DNA of 64,000 bases, taken from NCBI GenBank assembly GCA_041666745.1, contig JBAYGI010000002.1, positions 36,291 through 100,290 of the forward strand, in the 5' to 3' direction. Shown here one piece after another: positions 7,710 to 49,150 of this stretch. Below the pieces are notes generated by a model. The model was not told where the DNA came from. It worked only from the letters and a program-made list of their open reading frames with translations, and did not search any database. This DNA is from Candidatus Magasanikiibacteriota bacterium (GTDB lineage Bacteria; Patescibacteriota; Patescibacteriia; Magasanikbacterales; GWA2-37-8). The position numbers and the translations under genes were made by a program. Position 1 is the stretch's first letter; each line of letters begins with the position of its first letter.

Positions 7710-8984
7710 ATGTGGGAAAAAATTGAACAAGTTTGGAAAATTAAAGATATTAGAAAAAATATCTTATTTGTCTTGGCCATGTTGGTAGTATTTCGTTTGG
7801 CTTCACATGTGCCGGTTCCGGGAGTAAATGTCGCCAATTTAAAAAATTATTTGGAAGGCAATCAGATCATGGGGTTGTTGAATGTGTTTTCCGGTGGTAC
7901 CATGTCAAATTTTTCAGTGATCATGTTGGGTGTGGCTCCGTATATTACGGCTTCTATTATTTTTCAGTTGTTGGCGATGATTGTGCCGGCTTTGGAAGAA
8001 ATGACTAAAGAAGGTGAATCCGGCCAACAGCGCATCAACATGTATACTAGATATCTGACAGTACCTCTAGCATTTTTGCAATCTTTTGCTATGATCCGTT
8101 TGTTGCAAAATTCCTCTCGTCCGATTTTATCGGATTTGACTCCTTTTAGAATGATTACCATTATGGCCACCATTACTGCCGGAACAATGTTTTTGGTGTG
8201 GCTCGGTGAATTGATTTCAGAAAAGAAAGTTGGCAACGGGATGTCCTTGTTGATTTTTGCCGGTATCGTTTCTTCTTTGCCAACAATTTTACGCAATGCT
8301 TTTATCAACTATACTTCGGCTGATTTTTATACTTTTGTTCTGATGGCCGGTGTAGCGGTTTTGACTGTAGTTGGTGTGGTATTTATCAATGAGGGACAGA
8401 GAAATATTCCGGTCAATTATGCCAAACAAATGCGTGGCAATCATGTTTACGGCGGTTCTTCTTCACACTTGCCAATTCGTGTAAATATGTCCGGTGTAAT
8501 TCCGATTATCTTCGCGATTTCTTTGGTGTTATTTCCACCGATGGTTGCTCAGTTTTTCGTACATGCCCGTAGTGCTTGGTTGTCTGTAATGGCAGTGAAG
8601 ACTATCGCCTTGTTTCAAAATCAATTATTTTATGGTTGTGCTTATTTCTTGTTAGTATTTTTCTTCACTTATTTCTATACAGCCGTTATTTTCCATCCTC
8701 AAAAAATTGCGGAGAATTTGCAACGTCAGGGTGGGTTCGTGCCAGGTATTCGTCCAGGTAAAGAAACTGAAAAATATTTGGGCATGACTGTAAATCGTAT
8801 CAATTTAATCGGCGCTACTTTCCTAGGTTTGATTGCAGTGTTACCATTGTTGGTCCAAGGGGCTTCGGGTACGACCTCGTTTCAGATTGGTGGTACTAGT
8901 TTGTTGATCGTAGTGGCAGTGGCTATCGAAGCGGCCAAACAGATTGAATCTCAGGTGACAATGCATGAGTACGACCGTATTTAA
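7710..8984 (+). CDS. secY: Preprotein translocase subunit SecY
   Basis: 424 aa, 10 TM pattern, ...MLGVAPYITASIIFQLL... SecY signature. Confidence 0.95.
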   Translation: MWEKIEQVWKIKDIRKNILFVLAMLVVFRLASHVPVPGVNVANLKNYLEGNQIMGLLNVFSGGTMSNFSVIMLGVAPYITASIIFQLLAMIVPALEEMTKEGESGQQRINMYTRYLTVPLAFLQSFAMIRLLQNSSRPILSDLTPFRMITIMATITAGTMFLVWLGELISEKKVGNGMSLLIFAGIVSSLPTILRNAFINYTSADFYTFVLMAGVAVLTVVGVVFINEGQRNIPVNYAKQMRGNHVYGGSSSHLPIRVNMSGVIPIIFAISLVLFPPMVAQFFVHARSAWLSVMAVKTIALFQNQLFYGCAYFLLVFFFTYFYTAVIFHPQKIAENLQRQGGFVPGIRPGKETEKYLGMTVNRINLIGATFLGLIAVLPLLVQGASGTTSFQIGGTSLLIVVAVAIEAAKQIESQVTMHEYDRI

Positions 8985-8998
8985 GATTTAATTCTTTA

Positions 8999-9108
8999 TC
9001 AAAAAAACACAGGTTACAACCACCTTTTCGCTTTTTTTGCCCGCGAGGGCAAAAGGATGAGCCTCGGCTCATAACCCGCTCAAAGGTAATTGTAACCTGT
9101 GTTTTTTT
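8999..9108 (+). ncRNA. Unclassified structured RNA / terminator-embedded conserved element, copy 1 (A-run, 13-bp outer stem ACACAGGTTACAA/TTGTAACCTGTGT, ~70-nt conserved core with GCGA-tetraloop hairpin and CUCG hairpin, U-run)
   Basis: Near-identical core repeated at 41602-41671 with completely different but perfectly paired outer stem and compensatory changes in inner hairpin (TGCCC-GCGA-GGGCA vs CAGCC-GCGA-GGCTG). Confidence 0.5.
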
Positions 9109-9176
9109 CGTCAGTTTGCAATTTCTGCTGTAAATCGGTATTTTTTTATTCTTTGAAATGGTATATAATTGGTGGT

Positions 9177-11294: not shown

Positions 11295-11304
11295 AGTAAA
11301 AAAA

Positions 11305-11337
11305 CCAGCCAAAGGGTTGACTTTTGGCTGGTTTTTG
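11305..11337 (+). terminator. Rho-independent terminator of recG (CCAGCCAAAG-loop-CTTTTGGCTGG + TTTTTG)
   Basis: Inverted repeat plus T-run immediately after recG stop. Confidence 0.6.
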
Positions 11338-11426
11338 TTTATAATGTCGACGTTTGGTGTTTGTCTGCAAAGTGTGGCGGAAGTTCCGTCGCTTGGTGTG
11401 GCTGCGCTAGACCAGAGGAGTAGAGA

Positions 11427-11723
11427 ATGGAAATCTGCTGTATCAAGTTGCCGCGTTTCGCGGTATCTACGGTGTCGAACGGCGAACCAGACCAGCTCAT
11501 ACATGTGAATGTGCGAGCAGGCCGGTATACCAAACAGGTCATCGTTCGAAGGGATGACGCGATTTCCCTGTTGAAGGGATATGCGGGCAACCGCACCATC
11601 GATTTCTACGACGCGCTCGATTCGGAAGTCCCGGCCGGACAGATTCTGGCCAAGGATATTCTCGCCGTCAATTTGCCACGGACATCAAGGAAACGGGACG
11701 GACTTTACCTTTGTGGCCGTTAG
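11427..11723 (+). CDS. Hypothetical 98-aa ORF inside GC-rich island (possibly non-coding)
   Basis: ATG ORF, GC3 ~65% unlike host genes; no recognisable domain. Confidence 0.2.
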   Translation: MEICCIKLPRFAVSTVSNGEPDQLIHVNVRAGRYTKQVIVRRDDAISLLKGYAGNRTIDFYDALDSEVPAGQILAKDILAVNLPRTSRKRDGLYLCGR

Positions 11724-11743
11724 GCGGCGGCTTCTCTGCTCGT

Positions 11744-11771
11744 AGGCCGCGGATCTCTCGATCCGCGGCCT
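11744..11771. terminator. Perfect 12-bp palindrome with 4-nt loop (AGGCCGCGGATC tctc GATCCGCGGCCT), likely bidirectional terminator between convergent transcription units
   Basis: Seen directly; located 10 nt from stop of minus-strand gene 11782..12387. Confidence 0.5.
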
Positions 11772-11781
11772 CAGCATTTAT

Positions 11782-27387: not shown

Positions 27388-27416
27388 AAAACACCGACTG
27401 CCAAGCCGGTGTTTTA
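27388..27416 (+). terminator. Putative terminator after hicA (AACACCG-loop-CGGTGTT + TTTT)
   Basis: 7-bp stem, 10-nt loop, T-run. Confidence 0.4.
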
Positions 27417-27502: not shown

Positions 27503-28483
27503 ATGGTAGAAGGGTACAAACACAAACCATCATCAGTAGGAGATAAATTAAGAGGAGTTGCTGGTAGAATAGCGATGTTAGGAGGCGCGGCAGGTTTGCT
27601 TGGTGGCGTTGAACAGGTTGGTGAACACAGAGGAAAAGAGACTGCTCAAGAAAAAATTATGACAGGAAAAAATAAAAAAGAGGATAATACAAAAAATTTG
27701 GAGCAAGAAGTGGAAAATCGTCAGATGCATGTGATCAAAGAGATAGATCAATGTATACATGAATTAGAAAAAATCCCAAAAAATTTAAGTGTATCAGAAT
27801 TGTCTGATGTGACATTAAAAATGGAAAACATTCTTGATAATTATATTCAGTGGGCTTTTGATGATACTGGAGAACAAACAGATAATACAATTTTGATTTT
27901 AGGGAAAATACGCGAATTTGCTACAAAAATTGCCGAAGGACATGTTGATGAAGAAGATGAAAAAAACCAATTTAGAGCATTTATCACAGGAGATGGTGTG
28001 CTGGCCTACGAGGCAAAAAAAAGTCCGGATTTTAACATAATGGTTAATGAAGTAATAGCCAAAAAACGACTTGAGTTGATGGAATTTAAAAGATTATTTC
28101 TTACAGCTTTTAATAATAGGGATTTTCAAAGAGCAACAATTTACAGTCGTGATATTATATTCCTTGCGGAACAAATTTCGGGTTTGACTGCTAGTATGTA
28201 CTATGAAAAAGCAGACAGAGCAAAGTTTGGTAGTTATTATAGAAAAAGTGGAGAATTAGGTTTGGGAAGGGGTTTGGATTTGCATAGAGTCAGAGAACAT
28301 GTTAGTGAAATATCACAAGGTTCTCCAGAAGATTTTACTCGACCAGAATTTCTTACACCCCATGAAATAGATACTTTTATTGATATGCCAAAGTCAGGTT
28401 CGTCAAGAAAAACAGAAGAAGAAATCAGAATGCAAAAACAAGCCGATGAAAATAGTCGTGGCACGAGTCCGGCATTTGATTAA
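27503..28483 (+). CDS. Hypothetical protein (326 aa, no recognised domain), downstream of G9-tract promoter
   Basis: ATG ORF with host-like codon usage; acidic/Lys-rich; bracketed by promoter and strong terminator. Confidence 0.5.
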   Translation: MVEGYKHKPSSVGDKLRGVAGRIAMLGGAAGLLGGVEQVGEHRGKETAQEKIMTGKNKKEDNTKNLEQEVENRQMHVIKEIDQCIHELEKIPKNLSVSELSDVTLKMENILDNYIQWAFDDTGEQTDNTILILGKIREFATKIAEGHVDEEDEKNQFRAFITGDGVLAYEAKKSPDFNIMVNEVIAKKRLELMEFKRLFLTAFNNRDFQRATIYSRDIIFLAEQISGLTASMYYEKADRAKFGSYYRKSGELGLGRGLDLHRVREHVSEISQGSPEDFTRPEFLTPHEIDTFIDMPKSGSSRKTEEEIRMQKQADENSRGTSPAFD

Positions 28484-28488
28484 AAAAT

Positions 28489-28521
28489 AAAGCCGGCTTA
28501 CAAATAGCCGGCTTTATTTTT
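28489..28521. terminator. Bidirectional Rho-independent terminator (AAAGCCGGCT-tacaaat-AGCCGGCTTT flanked by A-run and T-run)
   Basis: Perfect 10-bp stem between convergent genes. Confidence 0.65.
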
Positions 28522-33753: not shown

Positions 33754-36201
33754 ATGTTAATCTCATACAATTGGCTAAAACAATATATCAACCTGCCGGA
33801 TTCTGTGTCTGCGCAAGAAGTGGGAGATAAATTGAAAAATGCGGTGGTGGAGGTGGAAAAGGTGGAAGCGCAGGGGGCGGATTTGGATAAAATTGTGGTT
33901 GGCAAAGTGACGAGTGTACAGAAACATCCCAATGCGGATAAATTAAATATTTGTACCGTGGAATTTGGTGAAAAATTTCCAGCGCAGGTGGTTTGTGGTG
34001 GAAGTAATGTAGTTGAGGGAATGTTGGTGGCGTTTGCTCCGCTTGGCGCCAAGGTGCGTTGGCATGGCGAGGGTGAATTGGTGGAATTGAAAAAAGCCAA
34101 GATTCGCGATATTGAATCTTATGGTATGATTTGCGCTTCTACTGAAATTGGTTTGGGTGCAATGTATCCGCTTAAAAGCGAAAAAGAAATTTTGGATTTA
34201 ACAGATAAAAATTTAAAAGTGGGTATGCCATTGGCCGAAGCGCTCGGACTTAATGACGCCATTTTTGAAATAGACAACAAATCCCTTTCCAACCGTCCCG
34301 ATCTATGGGGGCATTATGGTATCGCGCGCGAAGTGGCGGTGTTGTATAATCGCGATTTGAAAAATTATGAGACGAAGAAAATTGGCAGTGGAAAAGGTTT
34401 TAAATTGAAAGTGGAAGTGCAAGACAAAAAATCCTGCCCGCGGTATATGGCTGTGGCGGTGGAAAATGTGGTTATCGCGCCATCGCCGGCTTGGTTGCAA
34501 AATGCGTTGGTGGCGATTGGTCTGCGCCCGATAAACAACATCGTGGACATTACCAATTTTGTGATGATGGATTTGGGTCAGCCGATGCACGCCTTTGATG
34601 CCAAAAATATTGATGGAAAAATTATTGTGCGCAACGCGCAGAACAACGAAAAATTTATTACATTAGACGAACGTGAACATATTTTAAATGAAAATGATTT
34701 GGTAATCGCCGATGACCAAAAAGCGATCGCTTTGGCCGGTGTGATGGGTGGTTTGCAAAGTGGCGTAGAGGATAACACCAATACCGTTATTTTTGAATCC
34801 GCCAATTTTGATTCTTCCACTGTGCGTAAAACCTCGGTGCGTTTGGGTTTGCGAACAGATAGCGCTCAGCGATTTGAAAAATCTTTGGATCCAAATATGT
34901 GCGAGCAGGCGCTGTGTAAAGCGGTGGAATTAACTTTGCAATTATGTCCGGAGGCGAAAGTTGCCAGTCCGGTGTCCGATGTCAAAAGTTTTTCATTGCC
35001 GGTTGGCCCGATAGATGTGCCAAAAAATATTTTTGAGAAAAAATTGGGTGTGGTGATTCCGGAAAAAGATATTTTAAACACATTGACTCGGCTTGGTTTT
35101 GAAGTGAAAGCCAAAAAAGATATTTACAAAATTACCATTCCAACCTGGCGCGCTACCAGAGATGTCGGTATTGCCGAAGATATTGTGGAAGAAGTTTTGC
35201 GTTTTTATGGTTATGAAAATATTGTGTCCGCTTTACCGAGTATGCCGATCACTCCACCGGAGAAAAACCATCTACGCGCGTTGGAACATACGGTCGGTGA
35301 TGTGTTGGTAAAAAATTTGGCCTACACCGAAACATATAATTATTCTTTTGTCAGTGAACAGCAAATTTTGGCTTTGGGAGATGATTTGAAAAAATATATT
35401 GAGCTGGATAATCCGCTTTCCAAAGAGCGACCATATCTGCGTCGCAATTTATTGCCGAATTTGATGGAAAATGTAAAAAATAATATTGCCGATACGGCGG
35501 AAGTAAAAATATTTGAAATTGGAAAAGTTTTTTCTACCAATGAAAATGGTCTGCGCGCCAATGCCAATGGAGATGAACTTTTGCCGGGTCAAGATAGTTG
35601 GTTGGCCGGTGTGTATGTCGCCAAAAAAGTAGAAACACCATATTGGCAAGCCGTGTCGGTATTGGAAAATATTTTTGCGGAGTTGAAAACGCGCTATGAA
35701 ATACTACCACCGGATAAAGCGATGGCGTGGGAACATCCATCGCGTTTGGGTTTGGTATCGGTGAAAGGGAAAACCGTTGGTGTTGTTTGTGAAATCAATC
35801 CGTTGACAGCAAATAATTTGGGTATTGACCAGCGAGTCGGTGTGTTGCAATTGAATTTATCCGCGTTGTCAGATATTTTGGAAGTACAAAATTTTCAATC
35901 ACACTACAAACACACGTCAATATATCCAGAGGTAGTGCGCGATTTGGCGTTCTTGGTGAAAAAGGAAATCAGTCACAGAGAAATTAAAGAAGCATTGAAA
36001 AATATTGATCCATTGCTAAAAAAAGTGGAGCTGTTCGATGTTTATGAAGGGAAAAATATTGGTGAAGGATACAAAAGTATGGCCTACCACCTGACTTTGG
36101 GAAGTGATGATCGCACTTTGACCACTGCCGAGGTTGATACTGCATTCGTCAAAGCGCAAGAAAAGTTAAAAAAACAGTTTGATGTCGAGGTGAGGAAGTG
36201 A
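33754..36201 (+). CDS. pheT: Phenylalanine--tRNA ligase beta subunit
   Basis: MLISYNWLKQYINLP..., tRNA-binding, B3/4, B5, FDX-ACB domains; 815 aa. Confidence 0.95.
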   Translation: MLISYNWLKQYINLPDSVSAQEVGDKLKNAVVEVEKVEAQGADLDKIVVGKVTSVQKHPNADKLNICTVEFGEKFPAQVVCGGSNVVEGMLVAFAPLGAKVRWHGEGELVELKKAKIRDIESYGMICASTEIGLGAMYPLKSEKEILDLTDKNLKVGMPLAEALGLNDAIFEIDNKSLSNRPDLWGHYGIAREVAVLYNRDLKNYETKKIGSGKGFKLKVEVQDKKSCPRYMAVAVENVVIAPSPAWLQNALVAIGLRPINNIVDITNFVMMDLGQPMHAFDAKNIDGKIIVRNAQNNEKFITLDEREHILNENDLVIADDQKAIALAGVMGGLQSGVEDNTNTVIFESANFDSSTVRKTSVRLGLRTDSAQRFEKSLDPNMCEQALCKAVELTLQLCPEAKVASPVSDVKSFSLPVGPIDVPKNIFEKKLGVVIPEKDILNTLTRLGFEVKAKKDIYKITIPTWRATRDVGIAEDIVEEVLRFYGYENIVSALPSMPITPPEKNHLRALEHTVGDVLVKNLAYTETYNYSFVSEQQILALGDDLKKYIELDNPLSKERPYLRRNLLPNLMENVKNNIADTAEVKIFEIGKVFSTNENGLRANANGDELLPGQDSWLAGVYVAKKVETPYWQAVSVLENIFAELKTRYEILPPDKAMAWEHPSRLGLVSVKGKTVGVVCEINPLTANNLGIDQRVGVLQLNLSALSDILEVQNFQSHYKHTSIYPEVVRDLAFLVKKEISHREIKEALKNIDPLLKKVELFDVYEGKNIGEGYKSMAYHLTLGSDDRTLTTAEVDTAFVKAQEKLKKQFDVEVRK

Positions 36202-36211
36202 TTATACACAG

Positions 36212-36250
36212 AAACTCCGCAAAACAACTTGCGGAGTTTTTTTATTTTTC
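36212..36250 (+). terminator. Rho-independent terminator of pheT (AAACTCCGCAA-loop-TTGCGGAGTTT + T-run)
   Basis: 11-bp stem then TTTTTTATTTTT. Confidence 0.7.
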
Positions 36251-36257
36251 AAATTTG

Positions 36258-36266
36258 TGGTATAAT
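36258..36266 (+). promoter_or_regulatory. Extended -10 promoter element TGgTATAAT upstream of PAS gene
   Basis: TG-N-TATAAT 40 nt upstream of ATG 36307 with GGAGG RBS. Confidence 0.4.
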
Positions 36267-36306
36267 TTCTATAGTAAGAAACTCGTTTAATATAAAAATT
36301 TATCAT

Positions 36307-36828
36307 ATGGAGGAAATCAACTACCAAAAAGCGTTAAAAGATCTGGAAGCATCCGAAAAACGCTATCGTCGGTTGTTTGAAACAGCGCAAGACGGTGTTC
36401 TTATAATAGATTTTAATACGGGGATAATTTTAGATGTTAATCCATTTTTGGTTGATATGCTGGGCTATTCCAAAGATGATTTATTAAAAAAATATCTTTG
36501 GGATGTTGGCTTTTTGAGAGATGTGGTCGCTTCCAAGGAAAATTTTATGGCCTTGCAGACTGAAAAACTTGTTCGTTTTGAAGATTTACCATTGGAAACC
36601 AAAGACGGAAAAAGGAAAGACGTAGAATTTGTCGCCAATGCTTATCAGGTAAATGGAGATCATGTGATTCAATGCAATATCCGCGATATCACCGCTCGTA
36701 AAAAAGCCGAAAGCCAGTTGAAAGAAAAAATGGAGGAATTAGAAAAAATGAATCAAGCGATGATTGGCAGGGAATTGGAAATGGTAAAGTTGAAGGAAAA
36801 AATAAAGGAGTATGAAAATAAAAAGTAA
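36307..36828 (+). CDS. PAS domain-containing protein (stand-alone sensor)
   Basis: ...YRRLFETAQDGVLIIDFNTGIILDVNPFLVDMLGYSKDDLLKKYLWDV... PAS fold; C-terminal coiled coil. Confidence 0.7.
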   Translation: MEEINYQKALKDLEASEKRYRRLFETAQDGVLIIDFNTGIILDVNPFLVDMLGYSKDDLLKKYLWDVGFLRDVVASKENFMALQTEKLVRFEDLPLETKDGKRKDVEFVANAYQVNGDHVIQCNIRDITARKKAESQLKEKMEELEKMNQAMIGRELEMVKLKEKIKEYENKK

Positions 36829-39244
36829 AATCTTTTTAAATTTGTTTTTAATTTCCATTTTTTCTGTGGCAGTAGTGTCCGGCTCTATTTATTATTTCGG
36901 TCGTCAAATAATTATAGATAATATTGCCAGTTACAATTATATTTTGGCGCAAAATGATATTGACGCGGTCGATCGTTTTGTTGATCGTCGATTGGAACGA
37001 TGGCAGTCGTATGTTTCCAGCAACACAGATTTATGGAATGCTTTGCATCAGTCGAATGATAAATTTGCAAAAATGGATGGTCGTGAAGTGTTTATAAAAA
37101 CTGAAGATGATGCTTGGAAAAAGGAAGACAAAAATACAATCACTCCATTCATGAAAACTATTTTGGAGAATCCTATTTCCGATGGTTTGCGATTGCGTAC
37201 GGCTTTTTATGAAAAACAATCCGGTTACAAAATCTTTCCTGAATTTTTTGTTACCAACAAATATGGGGCGTTGATAGCCACTACCAATAAGACCACTGAC
37301 TATCTCCAGTCCGATGAAGATTGGTGGCAAAAGGCCGAAGATGAGGGTGTGTGGGTCGGTGACCTATCTTTTGATGAGAGCAGTGGTGTAAATGGCTTGG
37401 AGTTTTGTATTCGCATTGATGATAACGAAGGTAATTTTGTGGGGGTGGCTAAAATTATCTATAATATTAAAGATATTTCCAATATTATTGATAGTGTTAT
37501 AAAACCACTGGCGAGCGGTGTTGAAATTACCAGTTTAGGTTTTACTCGCAAAACAGTTAATGTTAGTTTGCTCACCAAAGATAGGAAATTAATTTATTCA
37601 ACGAAAAGTGGTTTTGGTAATTTAAAGGATTATCCTTTTTCTTCCATATTAAATACAATGATTGATAGTCGCAAGCCATATTTGGTGGCTACGGTGGATG
37701 GAACAGAAAAACTGTTTAGTCATGGCGATTCTCTCGGGTATAGTGATTTTAAAGGATTTGGTTGGTCGTTGATGGTAGAAAAAGATACACAAGAAGTATT
37801 GGCGCCTCTGGGGGTATTGTTGAATTGGTTATTTGTTTCTATTTTGGTAGTTTTTGGTCTCGTAGTTATATTGGCGCTGTGGTTGTCTAGTTCTTTTAAT
37901 AAACCGATTAAAAAATTAATGCAAAAAGTGGAGCAAGTGGAAAATGGTGACCTAGACATTAAATTAGAATCGTTAAGTCGTGATGAAATTGGTCAATTGG
38001 CCAAATCATTTGGAGATATGGTGGTGGCGGTAAAGGAATCTCGTCGAGAAATAAATAAAAAAGTGGAAGAGCAAACCGCGGAAATTAGACAAAAGTCTTC
38101 AGATTTAATTGATAAACAAAAAGCCATTTTAAATATTTTGGAAGATGTTAAAACTGAGAAAGAAAATGTTGAACGCGAACGTGACAAAGTGAACGCGATT
38201 TTGCATGGTATTGGTGACGGAGTATTTGTGGTGGATAAAGATTATAAAATTACAGTATTCAATTCAGTGGCGGAAAATATTTCCGGTTTTAGCGTGAAAG
38301 AAGTGATCGGAAAGCGTTATAATTCGGTATTAAAGTTTGTGTTTGAAAAAGATGAAAAAGTTCAAGACGAATTTGTGCGTAGCGCTATGGAGAGTGGTAG
38401 GGTTAAACAAATGTCCAACCATACTGTGATGGTGCGTAAAGATGGTCAGCATATGCCGGTAGCTGATTCGGCGGCTCCGCTAAAAGATGAAAAAGGCAAG
38501 GTTGTCGGTTGTGTAGTGGTATTTCGCGATGTTACAAAGGAAAGAGAAATTGATAAAATGAAATCCGAGTTTGTTTCAGTAGCTTCGCATCAATTGAGTA
38601 CACCGCTTACCGGTATAAAATGGTTTACCGAATTGTTGTTGAAAAATAAATTAAGCCCAACCGCCAAAGATTATGTGAAGCAAATTGCTGTCAGCAATGA
38701 GCGCATGGTGCATTTGGTGGATGATCTATTGAATGTTTCGCGCATAGAAACCGGACGAAAGTTCGATATATTACCGGTCGAAGTGGATGTAGTGTCTATT
38801 TTAAATCAAGTGATAGACGCCCAAAATGTATTGGCCCCTCTTAAAAAATTAAAAATCGAATTGGAAAAATCTTCTCCCCAAAAATTAATTTTATTGGTGG
38901 ATGGTGAAAAAATGCGTCAGGTATTTCAAAATCTCGTCAACAATGCCTTTAAATATTCCAAAGAAGGCGGTCATGTCGAAGTTGGTATTAAAGAAGATAA
39001 AAATGCGGTGGTTTTTTATGTAAAAGATAGGGGAATTGGAATACCAGAGAATCAACAGCATAGATTATTCGAGAAATTTTTTCGAGCCACCAATGCTTTA
39101 ACCGCGCATACCGATGGTACCGGTCTAGGTTTGTATATCATAAAAGCGATTGTCGAGGGTCATAAAGGAAAAGTTTGGTTTGAATCAAAAGAAAATGTAG
39201 GAACAACTTTCTTTGTTTCTTTACCAATTTTGAGTAAAAAATAA
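36812..39244 (+). CDS. Membrane sensor histidine kinase (TM - ~300-aa extracytoplasmic sensor - TM - HAMP - PAS - HisKA - HATPase_c)
   Basis: H-box SVASHQLSTPLTGI, G-boxes DRGIGIP...GTGLGLYIIK; two TMs flanking periplasmic domain. Confidence 0.85.
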   Translation: MKIKSKIFLNLFLISIFSVAVVSGSIYYFGRQIIIDNIASYNYILAQNDIDAVDRFVDRRLERWQSYVSSNTDLWNALHQSNDKFAKMDGREVFIKTEDDAWKKEDKNTITPFMKTILENPISDGLRLRTAFYEKQSGYKIFPEFFVTNKYGALIATTNKTTDYLQSDEDWWQKAEDEGVWVGDLSFDESSGVNGLEFCIRIDDNEGNFVGVAKIIYNIKDISNIIDSVIKPLASGVEITSLGFTRKTVNVSLLTKDRKLIYSTKSGFGNLKDYPFSSILNTMIDSRKPYLVATVDGTEKLFSHGDSLGYSDFKGFGWSLMVEKDTQEVLAPLGVLLNWLFVSILVVFGLVVILALWLSSSFNKPIKKLMQKVEQVENGDLDIKLESLSRDEIGQLAKSFGDMVVAVKESRREINKKVEEQTAEIRQKSSDLIDKQKAILNILEDVKTEKENVERERDKVNAILHGIGDGVFVVDKDYKITVFNSVAENISGFSVKEVIGKRYNSVLKFVFEKDEKVQDEFVRSAMESGRVKQMSNHTVMVRKDGQHMPVADSAAPLKDEKGKVVGCVVVFRDVTKEREIDKMKSEFVSVASHQLSTPLTGIKWFTELLLKNKLSPTAKDYVKQIAVSNERMVHLVDDLLNVSRIETGRKFDILPVEVDVVSILNQVIDAQNVLAPLKKLKIELEKSSPQKLILLVDGEKMRQVFQNLVNNAFKYSKEGGHVEVGIKEDKNAVVFYVKDRGIGIPENQQHRLFEKFFRATNALTAHTDGTGLGLYIIKAIVEGHKGKVWFESKENVGTTFFVSLPILSKK

Positions 39245-39247
39245 AAT

Positions 39248-41125
39248 ATGCCAAAATCAAAATTAATCAGCAAGTGCATGGCCGAGCATGAAAGCGGGCA
39301 ATGTCACCTTTTTCGTCTGTTTTTTGAATACAGTCCGGATCCGATGTTTATCGAAACTATCGATGGAAAAATACTAGACTGCAATGTGTCTGCTTTGAAA
39401 ATGTTGGGCTATACCAAACATGAAATGTTGAGTTTGAATGTGGAGGATTTAATCCCAAAAGATAAAAGAAAAATTTTGCCGGAAATAATGAAGAAAATAA
39501 TTCATGTCGGTTCCGCTGTTTTGGAAAGTGAAAATATCAAAAAAGACGGTTCAGTTGTCCAAGTAGAAGCGCATTTAAAACTGATTCATCAAGAGGGGCG
39601 ACCACTAATATTTGCGGTAGTTGTAAATATTGGGCACCATAAAAAGATTGAAAAAGATTTAAAAGATAGTGAGGAAAAGTATAGAACTTTGTTTTTGCAC
39701 CAAGATGCGATCCTTGCTTCTATTCCGGATATTATCATGGAAGTTGATAAAAACAAGGTATATACTTGGGCAAACAAAAAGGGTTTTGAATTTTTTGGAG
39801 CTGACGTATTAGGTAAACGAGCGTCTCATTATTTTATAGGCAAACAAGCAACTTACAAAATAGTCGAGCCTCTTTTTGTTGGTACAAAAGATGCTATATA
39901 TGTGGAAAGTTGGCAAAGAAGAAAGGATGGAGAAAAACGATTGCTGGCTTGGTGGTCCAGATCGTTAAAAGATGATCAAGGAAATATTATTGGCGCAATT
40001 TCTACAGCGCGTGATGTTACCGATTATAGGTTGATGGAGGAAAAATTAATAGAAAACAAAAAAAGAGATGAAATCGTCTTTAGTTCAATCGTAGATACAA
40101 TTTTTGTTTGCGATAAAAAGGGTAAAATTTTAAATTTTAACAAAGCGGCTGAGAATTTGACTGGTATTTCTGCGAAAGAAGCAATCGGGAGTCATTATCA
40201 CAGAGTGTTTAGTTTTGTTGAAGAGGTTAGCAATAAACCTAGCTATGATTTTATAGTTGAAGCGATAGAAAAAGAAAAAATAATAAAAAATATCAACCAC
40301 ATGATGCTTGTTTTGAAAGATGGGAGAAAGATATCGATATCCGGGTCAACCGCGCCAATAAAGAATACTAAAGAAGGGACGGTTGGATGTGTGGTGACAT
40401 TGCGAGATATAACAAAAGAAAGAGCGGTGGATAAAACAAAATCAGAATTTGTTTCCGTAGCTTCGCATCAGTTGCGTACACCACTCACTGGTATTAAATG
40501 GTTTGTTGAATTGTTATTAAAAAATAAATTAAGTCCAACCGTAAAAGATTATATTGATCAAATCGCTATCAGCAATGAGCGTATGATACGTTTAGTGGAC
40601 GATTTGTTGAGTGTCTCACACATAGAAACAGGGCGAAGGTTTAATGTGGTTGCAAATGTTGTAGATGTAGTACCTGTTTTAAGACAGATTATGGATGAAC
40701 AGCGTTTGTTGGCCAAGTTGAAGAAAGTGGAATTAGTGTGCAGTAAAACCGCTCCATTGGAATTAATACTGAAGGTGGATGTAGAAAAAATACGGATAAT
40801 ATTTCAAAATTTAATCAGTAATGCTGTTAAATATTCAAAAAAAGGCGGTAAGGTGGAAGTGGGTTGCGAACAGCAAGACAAACAGGTGGTTTTCTATGTA
40901 AGAGACTTTGGTTTTGGTATACCGGATAGTGATAAGCATAGAATTTTTGAAAAGTTTTTTCGTGGTGAAAATGCTTTGTTGGCCAATACCGATGGTACGG
41001 GGCTGGGTCTTTTTATCGTGAAGGCGGCCGTAGAAGATCATGGAGGTGAGATTTGGTTTGAATCACAAAAAAATAAAGGTTCAACCTTTTATTTTTCTTT
41101 GCCGACGGTGAATAAAAAAAATTGA
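39248..41125 (+). CDS. Cytoplasmic multi-PAS sensor histidine kinase, paralog of upstream kinase
   Basis: Three PAS/PAC modules, H-box SVASHQLRTPLTGI, HATPase_c; C-terminal ~240 aa highly similar to 36812..39244. Confidence 0.85.
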   Translation: MPKSKLISKCMAEHESGQCHLFRLFFEYSPDPMFIETIDGKILDCNVSALKMLGYTKHEMLSLNVEDLIPKDKRKILPEIMKKIIHVGSAVLESENIKKDGSVVQVEAHLKLIHQEGRPLIFAVVVNIGHHKKIEKDLKDSEEKYRTLFLHQDAILASIPDIIMEVDKNKVYTWANKKGFEFFGADVLGKRASHYFIGKQATYKIVEPLFVGTKDAIYVESWQRRKDGEKRLLAWWSRSLKDDQGNIIGAISTARDVTDYRLMEEKLIENKKRDEIVFSSIVDTIFVCDKKGKILNFNKAAENLTGISAKEAIGSHYHRVFSFVEEVSNKPSYDFIVEAIEKEKIIKNINHMMLVLKDGRKISISGSTAPIKNTKEGTVGCVVTLRDITKERAVDKTKSEFVSVASHQLRTPLTGIKWFVELLLKNKLSPTVKDYIDQIAISNERMIRLVDDLLSVSHIETGRRFNVVANVVDVVPVLRQIMDEQRLLAKLKKVELVCSKTAPLELILKVDVEKIRIIFQNLISNAVKYSKKGGKVEVGCEQQDKQVVFYVRDFGFGIPDSDKHRIFEKFFRGENALLANTDGTGLGLFIVKAAVEDHGGEIWFESQKNKGSTFYFSLPTVNKKN

Positions 41126-41194
41126 TTTGATTTTTTGTCAGTTTTTTATTTTCGTGATATAATAGTCATAGGTAATTATTTAAAAGAGGGGTAT

Positions 41195-41581
41195 ATGTTT
41201 ACAAACTCAAAAGATATTTTATATTTAGTTATTTCGTTTTGCGTGCTGTGGGTGACTTTTTTCTTGTGTTGGATGTTTTATTATTTGATGCGTTTGTTGC
41301 GCAATGCCAATGAGATCGTCGAGGAATTTCGGGTGCGACTGCAGACTTTGACCGAGGCTATAAATTATATTCGCGGAAAAGTGGAACACATGTCCGGTTT
41401 GATGACTTTGATTACTGACGGCGCTTCCGGTTTGATTCAAAAAGTAATCGCCAAAAAAACCCACGAATGGGTAGAGGATGGATCCGAAAAGATAAATAAA
41501 AGCGCCAAAGAGGCGGTGGCTAGGGCAGTGGCTGTGACTGCTAAAAAAATGAAGAAAGCTACTAAGGCGATCAAAAAATAA
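41195..41581 (+). CDS. Hypothetical small membrane protein (1 TM + helical Lys-rich tail)
   Basis: ATG at 41195 preceded by AGAGGGG RBS; TM LYLVISFCVLWVTFFLCWMFYYL. Confidence 0.5.
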   Translation: MFTNSKDILYLVISFCVLWVTFFLCWMFYYLMRLLRNANEIVEEFRVRLQTLTEAINYIRGKVEHMSGLMTLITDGASGLIQKVIAKKTHEWVEDGSEKINKSAKEAVARAVAVTAKKMKKATKAIKK

Positions 41582-41690
41582 TAAAAAATACGCACATATA
41601 ACCACCTTTTCGCTTTTTTCAGCCGCGAGGCTGAAAGGATGAGCCTCGGCTCATAACCCGCTCAAAGGTAATTATATGTGCGTATTTTTT
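41582..41690 (+). ncRNA. Unclassified structured RNA / terminator-embedded conserved element, copy 2 (outer stem ATACGCACATATAA/TTATATGTGCGTAT)
   Basis: Core 41602-41671 matches 9020-9089 except compensatory changes in GCGA hairpin; flanked by A-run and U-run. Confidence 0.5.
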
Positions 41691-41699
41691 ATTATTTTT

Positions 41700-41728
41700 T
41701 TGACTGTGGATAAGGTTTGGAGTATGAT
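41700..41728 (+). promoter_or_regulatory. Sigma70-like promoter TTGACT-N17-TATGAT for gdh
   Basis: Consensus-like hexamers ~30 nt upstream of start. Confidence 0.45.
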
Positions 41729-41759
41729 TAACAATTATATTTAATTTTTAATTGTGAAT

Positions 41760-42986
41760 ATGCAAAATCCGTTCGAAAATGCGTTGGTTCAGTTGGAAAA
41801 AGCGGCCAAAATCATGAATCTGGATAAAAATATCTATGAGATATTGAAACAGCCGGATCGTATTTTGATTGTATCAATACCGGTAAAAATGGACAGTGGT
41901 GAGGTGAAGGTGTTTACTGGTTATCGTTCTCAATACAACAATGCCATGGGGCCATATAAAGGTGGTATTCGTTATCATGAAAATGTGTCGATTGATGAGG
42001 TGAAGGCGTTGTCTTTTTGGATGATGGTCAAGTGCGCTACCGTGAATATTCCGATGGGTGGCGGAAAGGGTGGTATTATCGTAGATTCCAAGAAATTGTC
42101 GGTGGGTGAGTTGGAGAGGTTATCGCGTGGTTATATCCAAAAAATTTGGCGTGAAATCGGGTCGGACAAGGATGTACCAGCGCCGGATATGTATACCACT
42201 CCGCAAATTATGGGGTGGATGAGGGATGAGTTTGAAAAACTTTTGGGTCAGGCTGATCCGGGGGTAATTACCGGTAAAGCAATCGCGGATGGTGGTAGTG
42301 AGGGGCGTGAAACAGCCACGGCTCAGGGTGGGGTTTATGTGGTGCGTGAATTGGCCAAAAAATTAAATTTAAATCCGAGTGAAGTAAAAGTGGTGATCCA
42401 GGGCATGGGCAATGTTGGTGGTTTTATGGCCAAATTACTGAGTGCGGATGGTTATAAAATTATTGCGATTAGTGACAGTAAAGGTGGAATATACAATGAA
42501 AACGGTTTGGATGTGTCAGCGGTATTTGAACACAAAAAACAAACTGGATCGTTGGTTGGTTTTGTGGGTGCTCAAATTGTTTCCAATGAACAGTTGTTGG
42601 AATTGAATACGGATATTTTGGTGCCTTCAGCTATGGAAAACCAAATCACTTCTCAAAATGTCAATAATATCAAAGCGAAAATAATAGTTGAAATGGCCAA
42701 CGGTCCAACCACTCCGGAAGCGGATGAAATTTTGGCTGGGCGCAATATTATCGTGGTGCCAGATGTTTTGTCCAATGCCGGTGGGGTGACGGTCAGTTGT
42801 TTTGAATGGGAACAAAATATTAAAAATGAAAAATGGACTGAGGCGCAAGTGTTTGCGAAGTTAGAGCCGATGATGGTACAGTCCTTTGGTGAGGTTTGGG
42901 ATACCAAAGAAAAATACCAGATCACTATGCGCGCGGCGGCCTTTGTAAAAGCGATTGAACGAGTAGCCAACAAAATGATTGTTTAA
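41760..42986 (+). CDS. gdhA: Glutamate dehydrogenase (Glu/Leu/Phe/Val dehydrogenase family)
   Basis: ...GPYKGGIRYHENVSIDEVKALSFWMMVKCATVNIPMGGGKGGI... catalytic motif, NAD(P) Rossmann GMGNVG; ATG at 41760 (GTG 41754 alternative). Confidence 0.9.
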   Translation: MQNPFENALVQLEKAAKIMNLDKNIYEILKQPDRILIVSIPVKMDSGEVKVFTGYRSQYNNAMGPYKGGIRYHENVSIDEVKALSFWMMVKCATVNIPMGGGKGGIIVDSKKLSVGELERLSRGYIQKIWREIGSDKDVPAPDMYTTPQIMGWMRDEFEKLLGQADPGVITGKAIADGGSEGRETATAQGGVYVVRELAKKLNLNPSEVKVVIQGMGNVGGFMAKLLSADGYKIIAISDSKGGIYNENGLDVSAVFEHKKQTGSLVGFVGAQIVSNEQLLELNTDILVPSAMENQITSQNVNNIKAKIIVEMANGPTTPEADEILAGRNIIVVPDVLSNAGGVTVSCFEWEQNIKNEKWTEAQVFAKLEPMMVQSFGEVWDTKEKYQITMRAAAFVKAIERVANKMIV

Positions 42987-42999
42987 GTAAAATTCGGTT

Positions 43000-44763
43000 A
43001 TGTTAGGCAGAGAGCGAATAAAAAAATGGTCACCATATATTTTGGTAATACTTTTATATTCGCTCTCTTTTTTTATCTTAACATATCCGCTGATAAAAAA
43101 TTTCGGTAGTGGCATTATTGGCTATCAAGGGAGTGACGCGCCGATATTTTTTTGGAATGCTTGGTTTTGGAAACAAAAATTATTAAACTGGGATTGGTCG
43201 TATTTTACCAATCTTATTTTTTTTCCATTGTATCCATCAGTACTGTTGCATACCAATACTCAGGTGCAAGGGCTATTGGCGACGATAATCGGATTGGTAA
43301 CCGGTAATTCGACCTTGGGCTTCAATTTGGTTTTTTGGTTTTCCACGGTGGCGGGCGCGTTTTTTGCGTTTTTATTTTTTAATTTAAAAACAAAAAATAC
43401 CATCGCGTCTTTTTTGGCCGGACAATATTTTGGCTTTCAGCACTTGTTTGGGATATATAGTTTATTTGGCACCCAAAATGTATTAAGTTTTTGGTATCTT
43501 CCGGCTAGTCTTTATTTCTTTGAACTATTTTTAATTAAAGCGAAAAAAAATTATCTGTTTTGGTTGGCGGTAATATTAAGTTTGGCATTTTATAATGAGC
43601 TGATAGTTTTTTTATTTTCCATTGCGACCATTTTTTTGTATGGCTTGGGAGTGATGGTTTTGGAAAAAAAGAAAATCAAAACATATTTGATTCCCGCTTT
43701 ATTAGTCGTTGTTATATTTTTTGTTTTGTCTTTGCCAAAAATATTGGCCATAAATTGGAAAGCCGGTGGAGCAGGGGATACTCCCACACCCACCTTGATG
43801 GATGTGGATTATTATCACAGTGATATTATAAATTTATTTCGTCCATCGGTGCATCATTTGATAGGTGATCAACTTGGCCGGTTGGGCGGTAACTTTGCCC
43901 TATATAATGGCAACGCATTTTTGGGTTTTTCTTTTTTCTTGGTGTTGTTTATTTGGTTGTTGTATTACAAAAAACATAAATCGTCATCAGAAGATAAAAA
44001 CAGTTTTTTAATATATAGTTTTGGAGCGGTGATGATATTTTTGTTGGCCTGTGGTCCGTATTTACATTTGTTTGGTTATGCTACCGGTATAGTGATGCCC
44101 CACTGGTTTATATTCAAGCTCTGGTCGGGGATAAACAATTTGCGCGTGCCACCACGCTGGCTATTTGTGTTTATATTTTTCATCGCCGGAATTTTGTCGT
44201 TGTGGTTAAAAAATATCTTTGAGCATACAACCAAACAAATGAAAATATTTTTAAGTTTAGTTATTTATTCGTTGTTGATTTTTGATTGTTGGTTTGTTCC
44301 CAAAAATATTATTTTTACCACCCCTGATTCGCCGGTATTTGAAAAAATCGTCGCGGACAAAAACGGCAGTGTGCTAGAGGTTCCGGTTTTGATTGCGAGC
44401 GGTCAGTTCAATTTGAATGGTAGTGAATATTCATCATTGTTGCGCCAAACTTGGCACCAGCACCAACAACTCGGCGGGATGCTCAGTCGTTTGCCGTTTG
44501 CTTGGCGAGATTATTATCAACAGGCTCCGGTATTAAAATATTTTATAAATTATGAAACCACACTGGCGGATCAAGCGGATTTGGAAAAAGATAATATAAA
44601 TAATTTTGTAAAAGTTTATGATTTGCGGTATATTATTTTGGATAAAAGCAAGTTATCTATATCAGATAAAGCGGGAAAAAGTTTGTTAGAATATATTAAT
44701 AATAAATTAAAGTTTAAAGTTTATTTTGAAGATGATAAATATTTGGTATTTATCGTCAAATAA
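43000..44763 (+). CDS. Polytopic integral membrane protein (587 aa), possibly GT-C-like glycosyltransferase
   Basis: >10 predicted TM segments, aromatic-rich; no firm family assignment. Confidence 0.45.
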   Translation: MLGRERIKKWSPYILVILLYSLSFFILTYPLIKNFGSGIIGYQGSDAPIFFWNAWFWKQKLLNWDWSYFTNLIFFPLYPSVLLHTNTQVQGLLATIIGLVTGNSTLGFNLVFWFSTVAGAFFAFLFFNLKTKNTIASFLAGQYFGFQHLFGIYSLFGTQNVLSFWYLPASLYFFELFLIKAKKNYLFWLAVILSLAFYNELIVFLFSIATIFLYGLGVMVLEKKKIKTYLIPALLVVVIFFVLSLPKILAINWKAGGAGDTPTPTLMDVDYYHSDIINLFRPSVHHLIGDQLGRLGGNFALYNGNAFLGFSFFLVLFIWLLYYKKHKSSSEDKNSFLIYSFGAVMIFLLACGPYLHLFGYATGIVMPHWFIFKLWSGINNLRVPPRWLFVFIFFIAGILSLWLKNIFEHTTKQMKIFLSLVIYSLLIFDCWFVPKNIIFTTPDSPVFEKIVADKNGSVLEVPVLIASGQFNLNGSEYSSLLRQTWHQHQQLGGMLSRLPFAWRDYYQQAPVLKYFINYETTLADQADLEKDNINNFVKVYDLRYIILDKSKLSISDKAGKSLLEYINNKLKFKVYFEDDKYLVFIVK

Positions 44764-44778
44764 ATTTATAATAAAAAT

Positions 44779-45648
44779 ATGCCTGAATTACCGGAAGTAG
44801 AAACAATTCGCCGTGATTTGGAAAATAAAATTACCGGTGAAAAAATTAAAGATATTAAAATTTTGGCTACCAAAAGCATTCACAATAAATCTTCGGATTT
44901 TTTAAAAGTTTTGGTGGGTAATAATTTTAAACATATTGAACGCCGTGGTAAGTTGTTGATGTTGGCTTTGAGTAAAGTGGATAAATTTGCCTATCTGTTG
45001 GTGCATTTGAAAATGACCGGACAATTAATTTATCGTAACAAAAAACAATTGTTGGTTGGTGGCCATAGTCAAACTGGCATGACTACTGGGGTACCCAACA
45101 AATTCACACGCGCCATCTTCGTGTTTAGTAATGGTGGGCAGTTATTTTTCAACGATTTGCGTCGGTTTGGATATTTGAAATTGGTGTCGAAAGAAGAAAA
45201 AGAAAAAATAGTGACTAACAATTTTGGTATTGAACCGTTAACGCCGGATTATACTTTGGAAGCGTTTGCCGATTTATTCAAAAAGCGTCAGACCAATATC
45301 AAGGCACTGCTTTTGAATCAAAAATTAATTGCCGGTATTGGCAATATTTATGCCGACGAGACTTGTTTTGAAGCTCGGATTTTACCGTTTAGAAAAGTAT
45401 CAAGCTTGACTGGACAAGAAATTAAAAAACTTTATCGAGCGATTGAACATGTTTTAAAATTATCTATAAAAAACCGTGGAACAACCTTTAATAATTATGT
45501 AGATAGTGATGGTAATATCGGTAGTCATATTAATTTTTTAAAAGTGTATGGACGAGCTGGTCAAAAATGTAGGCGTTGTCGGCATATTATTTTAAAGAAA
45601 AAACATGCCGGGCGCGGTACGCATTATTGCGCTAATTGCCAGAAATAA
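44779..45648 (+). CDS. mutM: Formamidopyrimidine-DNA glycosylase (Fpg/MutM)
   Basis: MPELPEVETIRRDL catalytic N-terminus (Pro2, Glu3), H2TH, C-terminal zinc finger CRRC...CANC. Confidence 0.9.
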   Translation: MPELPEVETIRRDLENKITGEKIKDIKILATKSIHNKSSDFLKVLVGNNFKHIERRGKLLMLALSKVDKFAYLLVHLKMTGQLIYRNKKQLLVGGHSQTGMTTGVPNKFTRAIFVFSNGGQLFFNDLRRFGYLKLVSKEEKEKIVTNNFGIEPLTPDYTLEAFADLFKKRQTNIKALLLNQKLIAGIGNIYADETCFEARILPFRKVSSLTGQEIKKLYRAIEHVLKLSIKNRGTTFNNYVDSDGNIGSHINFLKVYGRAGQKCRRCRHIILKKKHAGRGTHYCANCQK

Positions 45649-45651
45649 TTT

Positions 45652-46554
45652 ATGAATTTGCCCGGCTGTACTGTTACCCTATGTACTTATAATCGTTTGG
45701 CATCTTTGAAAAAGAGTTTGAGTTCTTTGTTGTCTTTGGATTATCCGGAATTTGAAATTGTGATTATCAATGATGCTTCTACCGACGGCACTGCCAAGTA
45801 TCTAGCTACTTTAAAGGATCCAAAAATAAAAATAGTCAATCATCAAAAAAATCTCGGTTTAAGCGAAGCGAGAAATAGCGGAATTAAATCTGCTCATTAT
45901 GATTTTATTGCATCGATAGATGATGATTGTGTAGCCGATAAAAATTGGTTAAAAAATTTAATGACCGGTTTTACTTCCGACGAAATCGCTTTTGTGTTTG
46001 GACAGGTTTTTTATATCTCAGAAAATTATCACGGATATTTTCCGGAAAGATTGGTGCAAAATATCGGAGCTCGTTGGCCGATGGGAGGTAATATCGTTTA
46101 TCGTAAAAAAGTTTTTGATAAAATCGGTTATCTAAATTCGGATTTTTTTTATTTCAACAACGAAGACAGTGAAATTGCTATTCGAGCGGTGGCCAATGGT
46201 TTTGGATATGCGCGCGCTAGCAACGCGATTATTATTCATGAGTCGGCCAACTGGAATGTGCAATCACTGTGGCGCTCAGCTCGTAACGGGGCAGTGTGGC
46301 CAAAGCTAAAAAAACTCTACCCCAAACATTATTTGCATTTCCGCCCAAAAATATTATGGGGGTTGGTTGTTTTACCATGGGATTATTTTTTTATTCTTAC
46401 TTTACCGGTCTGCGTTCCGATATTATTGGTACGTTACGTGGTTCATGGTAAACGTGATTTTAAAATATTTTTTGCCAAGTGGCCGATTTTGCTGTTTTTG
46501 CGTCGCTATTATATTTGGAAGGAAGCGGTCAAAAATAAAGTTTGGATGTTTTGA
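45652..46554 (+). CDS. Glycosyltransferase family 2 with C-terminal TM region
   Basis: ...VTLCTYNRLASLKKSL...YPEFEIVIINDASTDGT... GT-A DxD region. Confidence 0.75.
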   Translation: MNLPGCTVTLCTYNRLASLKKSLSSLLSLDYPEFEIVIINDASTDGTAKYLATLKDPKIKIVNHQKNLGLSEARNSGIKSAHYDFIASIDDDCVADKNWLKNLMTGFTSDEIAFVFGQVFYISENYHGYFPERLVQNIGARWPMGGNIVYRKKVFDKIGYLNSDFFYFNNEDSEIAIRAVANGFGYARASNAIIIHESANWNVQSLWRSARNGAVWPKLKKLYPKHYLHFRPKILWGLVVLPWDYFFILTLPVCVPILLVRYVVHGKRDFKIFFAKWPILLFLRRYYIWKEAVKNKVWMF

Positions 46555-49116: not shown

Positions 49117-49150
49117 AATCACAGGTCAACAGCCTGTGATTTTGTTTTTT
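49117..49150 (+). terminator. Rho-independent terminator of leuS (AATCACAGG-tcaacag-CCTGTGATT + TTTGTTTTTT)
   Basis: 9-bp stem and T-run 6 nt after stop. Confidence 0.7.

Follow-up and report, generated by a model that had tools for sequence, protein, structure and literature searches.

The window, that is, the whole stretch of 64,000 nucleotides of a Candidatus Magasanikiibacteriota bacterium that was analysed, carries two copies of an element belonging to a previously undescribed, well-supported RNA/repeat family of CPR bacteria. It can be regarded, with rather more confidence than doubt, as a mobile, terminator-like structured RNA repeat that acts on the transcript of the upstream gene and contains a functional core. 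The copy of main interest, copy 2, is located where the first-pass annotation had placed a second structured element, between a small membrane-protein gene and the gdh promoter; its presence there was confirmed, with borders slightly wider than first reported, as a 128-nt palindromic unit composed of the following parts.

41573-41700, + strand: whole unit of copy 2 (A-rich tract, outer stem, core, outer stem, T-rich tract), delimited by the inverted repeat, the fold and the covariance model
41573-41589, + strand: 5' A-rich tract (41573-41603 pairs with 41670-41700)
41590-41603, + strand: 5' arm of the variable outer stem P1, whose columns covary in 34 copies
41604-41669, + strand: conserved three-way-junction core, supported by covariation and invariant in genome and metagenome copies
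41604-41609 with 41664-41669, + strand: helix P1b, ACCUUU paired with AAAGGU
41610-41613 and 41660-41663, + strand: UCGC opposite GCUC
41617-41636, + strand: hairpin P2a/P2, with a GCGA loop at 41625-41628
41637-41638 with 41657-41658, + strand: GG paired with CC
41639-41654, + strand: hairpin P3, with an AA bulge at 41655-41656
41670-41683, + strand: 3' arm of the outer stem
41684-41700, + strand: T-rich tract, reading ATTTTTTATTATTTTTT after the stem end at 41683

The inverted arms of copy 2 (41573-41609 and 41664-41700) are 37 nt long, 95% complementary and separated by a 54-nt spacer. Folding of the + strand RNA yields -60.6 kcal/mol, compared with -20.2 +/- 3.3 kcal/mol for dinucleotide shuffles (z = -12.1), a value equalled by none of the 200 shuffles; the reverse strand yields -66.0 kcal/mol. 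The covariance model of the family matches positions 41588-41686 with 108.6 bits. Both copy 2 and copy 1 have, in their sequences, the GC hairpin and the immediately following U-tract of an intrinsic terminator. Copy 1 is located downstream of the ribosomal-protein genes, in the following surroundings.

7710-8984, + strand: secY, the last gene of the ribosomal-protein cluster, 5' of copy 1
9001-9108, + strand: copy 1, a further member of the family located between secY and recG, with its core at 9022-9087
9177-11294, + strand: recG, 3' of copy 1, preceded by a conserved TATAAT at 9166-9171

The two cores are 92% identical over 74 nt (nhmmer E = 1.4e-19) and lie in the same orientation, so that the match in orientation and architecture claimed for the two copies is borne out. 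All differences between the cores fall in the P2 stem and are compensatory (CAGCC/GGCUG versus UGCCC/GGGCA), while the outer stems are unrelated in sequence, both pair, and differ in a fully compensatory manner; the stem of copy 1 ends with CCTGTG followed by TTTTTTT. No third copy was detected in the 64 kb with the covariance model. In the secY-recG spacer the element is present in the window and in the related loci L038 and L039. The copy in L038, orthologous to copy 1, has an identical outer stem and differs in P1b by two compensatory changes; that in L039 is divergent; in L040 and L041, secY is followed by simple hairpin-plus-T-run terminators instead of the element. The AT-rich sequence after copy 1, proposed in the first-pass annotation to be promoter-like, contains a TATAAT just 5' of recG that is kept in all four orthologous spacers preceding this gene. 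In the window (9160-9180) and in the spacers of L038, L039 and L040 this TATAAT lies only about 5-10 nt 5' of the recG start, which suggests that the recG mRNA may be leaderless or nearly so. Between the recG terminator and the next gene the window has a gap of about 445 nt (11337-11781) that contains only short overlapping ORFs on both strands. Rfam gave zero matches for it at E <= 0.1, and neither a tRNA nor a tmRNA is present; the relatives have a similar gap or small ORFs at this place.

Members of the family outside the window were collected by two independent pattern scans. A scan of one genome per species with the pattern of the core's 3' half gave 11 true copies in four MAGs, three of them named Magasanikbacteria and one labelled "uncultured Gammaproteobacteria"; the exact 5' half of the core was present in all 11, though the pattern did not demand it. 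The pattern of the 5' half, run against metagenomes, gave 15 loci, nearly all with the 3' half of the core. Divergent copies were added with a covariance model (R1), bringing the total to 34 distinct sequences from Candidatus Magasanikbacteria MAGs and metagenomes. The MAG with the gammaproteobacterial label, binchicken_co169_185, has three copies (L003, L013 and L015), all without the A-run and T-run; the label may be wrong, the element being otherwise restricted to Magasanikbacteria.

Throughout the family the repeat unit is 110-130 nt long. Outside the core it consists of an A-run, a variable outer stem of 12-16 bp and a semi-conserved inner stem AAU.ACC / GGUAAUU, which is the only part shared by the arms, their sequences being otherwise copy-specific. 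Helix P1b, ACCUUU / AAAGGU, is extended through a U.C/C.U tandem mismatch to a G-C and a C-G pair, and the register of this extension is supported by the variant in L042, in which GAGC stands opposite GCUC and the mismatch is thereby converted into two Watson-Crick pairs. Three U residues separate the P1 side from the P2a/P2 hairpin (UUU, 5 bp, a GCGA or GUGA loop, 5 bp, AAA), which is followed by GG-AUG...CAU-AA-CC, forming P3 with its AA bulge, then by a single C, the return strand of P1 and the T-run. The P3 loop is CUCG, CUUG or UUCG, and CAUAACCC is invariant across the family. In the 34-sequence alignment, which was fitted to the model and leans toward that structure, 88.2% of the cells are paired, against 36-46% when the partners are slid by 1-3 columns, and both sides have changed in 30 of 40 pairs, values reached by none of 500 shuffles; an independent MAFFT alignment, free of this bias, agrees. 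After refinement few conserved nucleotides are unpaired, most being helical.

In some copies an additional domain of about 70 nt, folding into two hairpins, is inserted exactly at the AA bulge, between CAU of P3 and AACCC.

L020:717-886, - strand: copy with the extra domain
L024:1243-1415, - strand (the same as L030:1120-1292): copy with the extra domain

The inserts of L020 and L024/L030 have in common the motifs GUC..GAG, UUGCGAG and GAAGUG as well as covarying pairs. Another resemblance concerns the copy at L029:6569-6668 (- strand) and other copies with P3 of the GAGCC..GGGCUC type, which contain UCGGGCUCAUAACCCG, presumably matching the anticodon stem-loop of the bacterial initiator tRNA (tRNA-fMet). 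Mimicry of tRNA-fMet was rejected, as the P3 pairing shows covariation instead and other copies break the mimic, and the likeness is probably a coincidence.

The family is absent from Rfam 15. At gathering score the whole 64 kb gave zero matches, and together with ARAGORN no tRNA, rRNA, tmRNA or other known RNA family was found in it; at E <= 10 the element region gave only generic long-hairpin matches, far under threshold. With the core alone the best score was 18 bits, where the threshold is 34.7; the search with the extra domain yielded no relevant match, and no prior description was found in the literature on Magasanikbacteria, CPR and Patescibacteria. An invariant junction with stems free to vary, many copies per genome, an optional two-hairpin domain at a fixed position (L020, L024/L030), as in many ribozyme and ncRNA families, and an outer helix of at least 20 bp, sufficient for RNase III, would all suit a catalytic or processed RNA, that is, a self-cleaving ribozyme trimming the 3' UTR or a trans-acting sRNA cut out, e.g., by RNase III. 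Such an origin of the conservation is quite unlikely in view of the mostly helical nature of the conserved nucleotides, the persistence of antisense copies and the lack of a match to the known ribozyme models of Rfam 15. The hammerhead core has the established consensus CUGANGA, and this required motif is absent, as checked by eye, from the junction strands on either strand.

The relation of copy 2 to its two neighbours can be judged from the arrangement of the gdh locus.

41195-41581, + strand: conserved gene of a 128-aa small membrane protein, with its stop codon (41579-41581) within the A-rich tract
41700-41728, + strand: promoter-like TTGACT-N17-TATGAT, with 10/12 consensus matches
41760-42986, + strand: gdh, Glu/Leu/Phe/Val dehydrogenase, identified by its Pfam families

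Orthologues of the small membrane protein in L042, L043 and L044 are 128 aa each, and because this length is conserved the start of the gene in the window was set at ATG 41195. The promoter scan by itself was at chance level (5 sites versus 4.4 expected), so the support for the gdh promoter comes from its conservation across genomes: TTGACT-N17-TATGAT, with unchanged spacing, precedes gdh in L042, L043 and L044 regardless of what lies upstream. In L042, whose Gdh is 84% identical, the element directly follows the orthologous 128-aa gene and is separated from gdh by a 230-aa gene on the opposite strand, and gdh retains its own promoter motif. In L043 a plain hairpin terminator, not the element, follows the 128-aa gene. 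The element moves with the 3' end of the 128-aa gene and the promoter moves with gdh; therefore the element is not the gdh leader, and the two are adjacent in the window only because the intervening gene is absent. Judging by gene order, copy 2 appears to be an element of the end of the upstream transcript, with the promoter belonging to gdh. Both proposals of the first-pass annotation for this site, the TTGACT-N17-TATGAT promoter and the assignment of the element to the end of the upstream transcript, thus find support in the related genomes.

The gdh neighbourhood of the window (33754-46554) is rearranged in comparison with L042, L043 and L044. Three genes, one of them encoding a 625-aa histidine-kinase-like protein, are located between pheT and the 128-aa gene (36229-41125), the opposite-strand 230-aa gene is missing before gdh, and a gene of a 587-aa membrane protein (43000-44763) separates gdh from fpg, which in the relatives are 1 nt apart. 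In L037 (Logan contig SRR6484324_43789), gdh is identical and the contig starts 114 nt upstream of it, just past the 3' end of the element; judging from this contig start, the repeat probably breaks assemblies.

A position upstream of gdh and recG in the window, about 40 conserved nucleotides in the junction and an architecture recalling aptamers within terminator hairpins might point to a 5' leader or riboswitch of the downstream gene, in which the ligand-bound junction controls the terminator. This is hardly credible: it is already contradicted by the gdh-conserved promoter lying 3' of the element and by the whole gene lying between the two in L042, about 11 copies of the family are located between convergent genes with no downstream gene to regulate, and the downstream genes are mutually unrelated and do not form a consistent set with the element in their 5' UTRs. 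Moreover, an outer stem of 12-20 bp would form with or without a ligand, and Rfam 15 gave zero riboswitch-family matches. The HMP-PP (thiS) riboswitch is similar to the element in having a conserved fold of ligand-binding size inside a terminator hairpin. Terminator-embedded aptamers of this kind are 5' leaders of one gene class with weak, switchable stems, whereas the element is located at the 3' ends of genes that are unrelated to one another, and its outer stem is very stable.

The 3'-end placement is common to the entire family. When ORFs were called mechanically around every copy and orthologous loci were counted once, the model match was found to begin in most cases 2-22 nt past a same-strand stop codon, and in two species copies lie 15-19 nt past a tRNA-Cys gene. 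About 14 copies are in the tandem-sense context, about 11 are between convergent genes and three are tandem-antisense (L002, L021 and L029); no copy is intragenic and none lies between divergent genes. The upstream genes, named from reading their translations, not by database scan, include secY, the H+-pyrophosphatase gene, dnaE, ftsH, ruvA, the pyruvate kinase gene, glyA, the RNase J gene, rnpA, apt and tsaD; the neighbouring genes on both sides are mutually unrelated. The A-run and T-run are present in about 20 of 29 copies, even between co-directional genes, while about nine have neither. Two of the copies lacking the U-tract are located upstream of a separate simple terminator. At glyA/pyk the stretch between the element, which lacks the U-tract, and pyk contains a separate terminator of the simple bidirectional type; here the element is a passenger of the 3' UTR and not the terminator itself. 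The window also contains plain symmetrical terminators composed of an A-run, a stem and a T-run, at 11300-11336, 27388-27415, 28483-28521, 36210-36241 and 49117-49141. Several plain-terminator stems resemble outer stems of the family, e.g., ACACCGGC and CACAGG, and in the related loci the loops of such terminators are often AUAAUU-like, resembling the inner arms of the element.

The orientation of the element shows no match to local GC skew, and the two copies in L005 face opposite ways, so replication was rejected as its determinant; orientation therefore tracks the neighbouring gene. It is also reversed at orthologous sites, downstream of ftsH in L011 versus L029 and at glyA/pyk in L024 versus L010, between species whose flanking proteins are about 90% identical, and the orientation of the core consequently cannot be essential to the role of the hairpin at these sites. 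An invertible promoter switch was considered and discarded, as the core contains no promoter motif and the sequence of the arms changes from locus to locus.

Recurrent placement at gene or operon ends, from which the first-pass annotation had argued for a terminator or insulator, is upheld by the whole family, every copy being located just past the 3' end of a gene, with plain terminators occupying the same slots in relatives. Copies within coding regions, named there as an observation that would speak against this proposal, are absent; as to random orientation, named likewise, a bias of about 14 sense to three antisense copies exists, but orientation is not fixed and flips at orthologous loci. 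The terminator interpretation agrees with the placement and with the shared slots, but about a third of the copies have no U-tract, and it had overlooked that this is a gained-and-lost dispersed repeat with an invariant three-way-junction core.

The best-supported interpretation is that the element would provide or accompany a two-way intrinsic terminator. The proposed mechanism, of which the termination activity, the binding of a partner by the core and the way of movement are inferred, can be put together as follows. The variable, GC-anchored outer stem, together with the A-run and T-run on either side of it, would make up a factor-independent terminator working in both directions and a 3'-end hairpin; in copy 2 this hairpin would end the mRNA of the small membrane protein, and gdh would then be transcribed from its own promoter. 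The apex of the hairpin is not a plain loop but a compact three-way junction with an almost invariant centre, one arm capped by a GNRA loop and the other by a stable tetraloop; it may act as a recognition module, for a protein or a tertiary fold, by which the 3' end is marked or protected. Like a miniature mobile element, the unit spreads and disappears whole, and it could flip through its own inverted arms. Bidirectional intrinsic terminators likewise stand directly behind stop codons and combine a GC-anchored stem with an A-run and a T-run; in the element a 66-nt structured domain replaces the usual loop of 3-8 nt, and some copies lack the U-tract. Since a simple hairpin would suffice for termination, the conserved core needs another account, and its invariance implies a function beyond hairpin formation.

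Gain of the element is best seen at the gdh-fpg junction. In L043 these genes are separated by 129 nt containing a complete element, whereas L042 and L044 have TAA-T-ATG at this site, and the spacing of gdh and fpg is the same (6227/6229) in a third contig, as judged from its gene table and not from DNA. The L043 insertion can be read as TA[127 nt]TA, a weak indication in AT-rich DNA with a single insertion. As the unit landed between genes 1 nt apart, the whole hairpin must have arrived together, and insertion of the core into the loops of existing terminators was rejected as the sole route. Dispersal of the unit is illustrated by the L018 copy, which matches copy 2 at 94% identity over 112 nt that include the outer stem, but has flanks non-homologous in both DNA and protein; in addition, the same core is associated with different outer stems within one metagenome. 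On the evidence of these loci the element is a dispersed repeat undergoing gain, loss and flipping.

Once in place, the element is conserved. In L016 and L027, with RuvA proteins 82% identical, identity is 95.5% in the core of the orthologous copies and 72.7% in the final 360 nt of ruvA, and the outer stem carries a compensatory change of G-C to A-U; the core is conserved above the neutral rate, and its fold is kept by selection. In the region downstream of this ruvA-associated copy (L016:1-270, L027:~8700-9000) GC content, as read from the alignment, jumps about 20 nt past the element from about 40% to about 65%. The high-GC segment is common to both loci, and at its start stands a GC-rich hairpin that is conserved, CCACCCAGG...CCTGGGTGG. 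Foreign DNA or a chimeric assembly could account for the segment.

The filled and empty gdh-fpg sites, the near-identical whole units at non-homologous loci (L018 and copy 2), the identical cores with differing outer stems in one metagenome, the flips in orientation and the possible TA duplication in L043 could also be accounted for by a selfish, MITE-like element, whose insertions are tolerated 3' of genes and whose core is kept for a mobilising enzyme, with no function for the host. An enrichment close to 3' ends is likewise described for pneumococcal repeats and has been interpreted there as tolerated insertion (PMC3049150). A purely selfish nature is nevertheless rather unlikely, given the conservation of orthologous copies over coding DNA and the pairing kept by compensatory changes, and given that copies replace plain terminators in the same slots. 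Besides, the terminal arms vary and hence offer nothing constant for a sequence-specific transposase to bind, and no transposase gene was found among the neighbours of the copies examined. A viral origin was rejected as well, since a scan of IMG/VR gave six pattern matches, none of which fitted the covariance model.

Mismatches in the stems bear on which strand is functional. On the tetraloop-bearing strand 39 A.C/C.A mismatches were counted against 7 G.U (binomial p ~2e-6), with an excess both for the outer stem (21 versus 4) and for the other helices (22 versus 5), in tandem and convergent contexts alike. In slid controls A.C and G.U are about equal, so base composition is not the cause. Accordingly, the reverse strand is more stable than the + strand in 25 of 29 copies. 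L006 and L020, which are unrelated loci, have mismatches in common, and these were therefore inherited and tolerated. As a check for a genome-wide mutational bias, the plain terminators of the same loci gave 5 G.U and 2 A.C in a small sample of 13 usable ones. This polarity contradicts a simple + strand RNA model, as selection on the + strand predicts the opposite. Possible causes are that the reverse strand matters too, e.g., by halting antisense transcription, which would fit the symmetrical A-run and T-run; that the unit spreads via a complementary-strand intermediate; that helix-breaking mismatches are favoured in the + strand RNA; or that the mutation process is strand-biased.

In its strongest form the polarity could mean that the opposite strand or single-stranded DNA is the functional entity, as a DNA hairpin or cruciform site for recombination, replication or single-strand transposition, or as a terminator directed at antisense transcription, the + strand RNA being incidental. 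The 39 to 7 excess of G.U equivalents tolerated on the reverse strand in both contexts, the greater stability of that strand, the flips in orientation and the symmetrical A-run/T-run even between co-directional genes speak for it. It is still improbable, as GNRA, UNCG/YNMG and CUUG-type loops occur on the + strand only, orientation follows the neighbouring gene (about 14:3) and not local GC skew, and no reverse-strand promoter-like site reading into copy 2 was found in the promoter scan. From the one-strand tetraloops, the orientation bias, the conservation and the domain fixed at the bulge it can be argued that the core of the terminator-like repeat functions as + strand RNA with a sequence-specific partner.

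The closest described analogue of the element is SPRITE of pneumococci, an interspersed repeat of about 105 nt with an 18-bp duplex, a U-rich tract and AAAA/TTTT ends, present in tens of copies per genome near the 3' ends of CDSs, over-represented between convergent genes and proposed to be a co-opted terminator; neither a recognisable partner transposase nor a clear duplication of the target is associated with it (PMC3049150). The long duplex, the U-rich tract, the A/T-run ends and the 3'-end and convergent placement match those of the element, a likeness that is a functional analogy drawn from the published description and not sequence homology. SPRITE, of a Firmicute, has no structured apex, whereas the CPR element has the invariant three-way junction with tetraloop-capped arms; and unlike SPRITE as described, the element has a copy-specific outer stem and is conserved where neighbouring genes are at 73% nucleotide identity.

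REP and BIME sequences are extragenic palindromes that, like the element, occupy gene ends and the spacers of convergent gene pairs, in both orientations, and form mRNA hairpins that can affect stability and termination (PMC3184786). REPs are about 35 nt long, with a genome-constant stem, a GTAG-type motif and a RAYT gene alongside, whereas the element is three times longer, with a variable stem and a conserved apex, and no RAYT was found near any copy; instead of a palindrome of 20-40 nt with a constant stem and a flanking tetranucleotide, the unit has 110-130 nt. A DNA uptake sequence or a REP was rejected on the reversed pattern, the apex being conserved and the stems not. MITEs that fold as RNA, such as Correia/NEMIS, ERIC/RU-1, RUP and bcr1, are non-coding, shorter than 200 bp and have inverted ends, and resemble the element in their presence/absence polymorphism and long predicted RNA hairpins; they are co-transcribed with their neighbours (PMC3184786, PMC3049150). 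As in a MITE, the element is present or absent at an orthologous site and occurs as the same unit at non-homologous sites, and its arms are inverted in every copy, but their sequence is not family-constant. In MITEs the terminal inverted repeats are constant within a family and the target duplications are defined, whereas the termini of the element are its least conserved part and a single doubtful TA duplication is seen; it is because the ends are the variable part that it falls outside both the REP and the classical MITE definitions.

A bolder possibility, to be entertained only tentatively, is that a new functional RNA domain is delivered by a mobile terminator cassette to the 3' ends of dozens of unrelated transcripts, where it might be a tag read by a CPR protein in decay, processing of mRNA or tRNA precursors, or insulation, or else a new small ribozyme; the wobble polarity would then be a footprint of spread through the complementary strand, as ssDNA or cDNA. 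To our knowledge, almost nothing is known about non-coding RNA, transcription termination and small mobile elements in CPR/Patescibacteria, which cannot grow alone. The family described here represents a covariation-supported RNA structure missing from Rfam 15 and a case in which some of the predicted terminators of a genome come from a repeat subject to gain, loss and flipping. In practical terms, the repeat could be mis-annotated as the leader of a downstream gene. Its compact invariant junction is a handle for finding an RNA-binding protein or an activity specific to these organisms.
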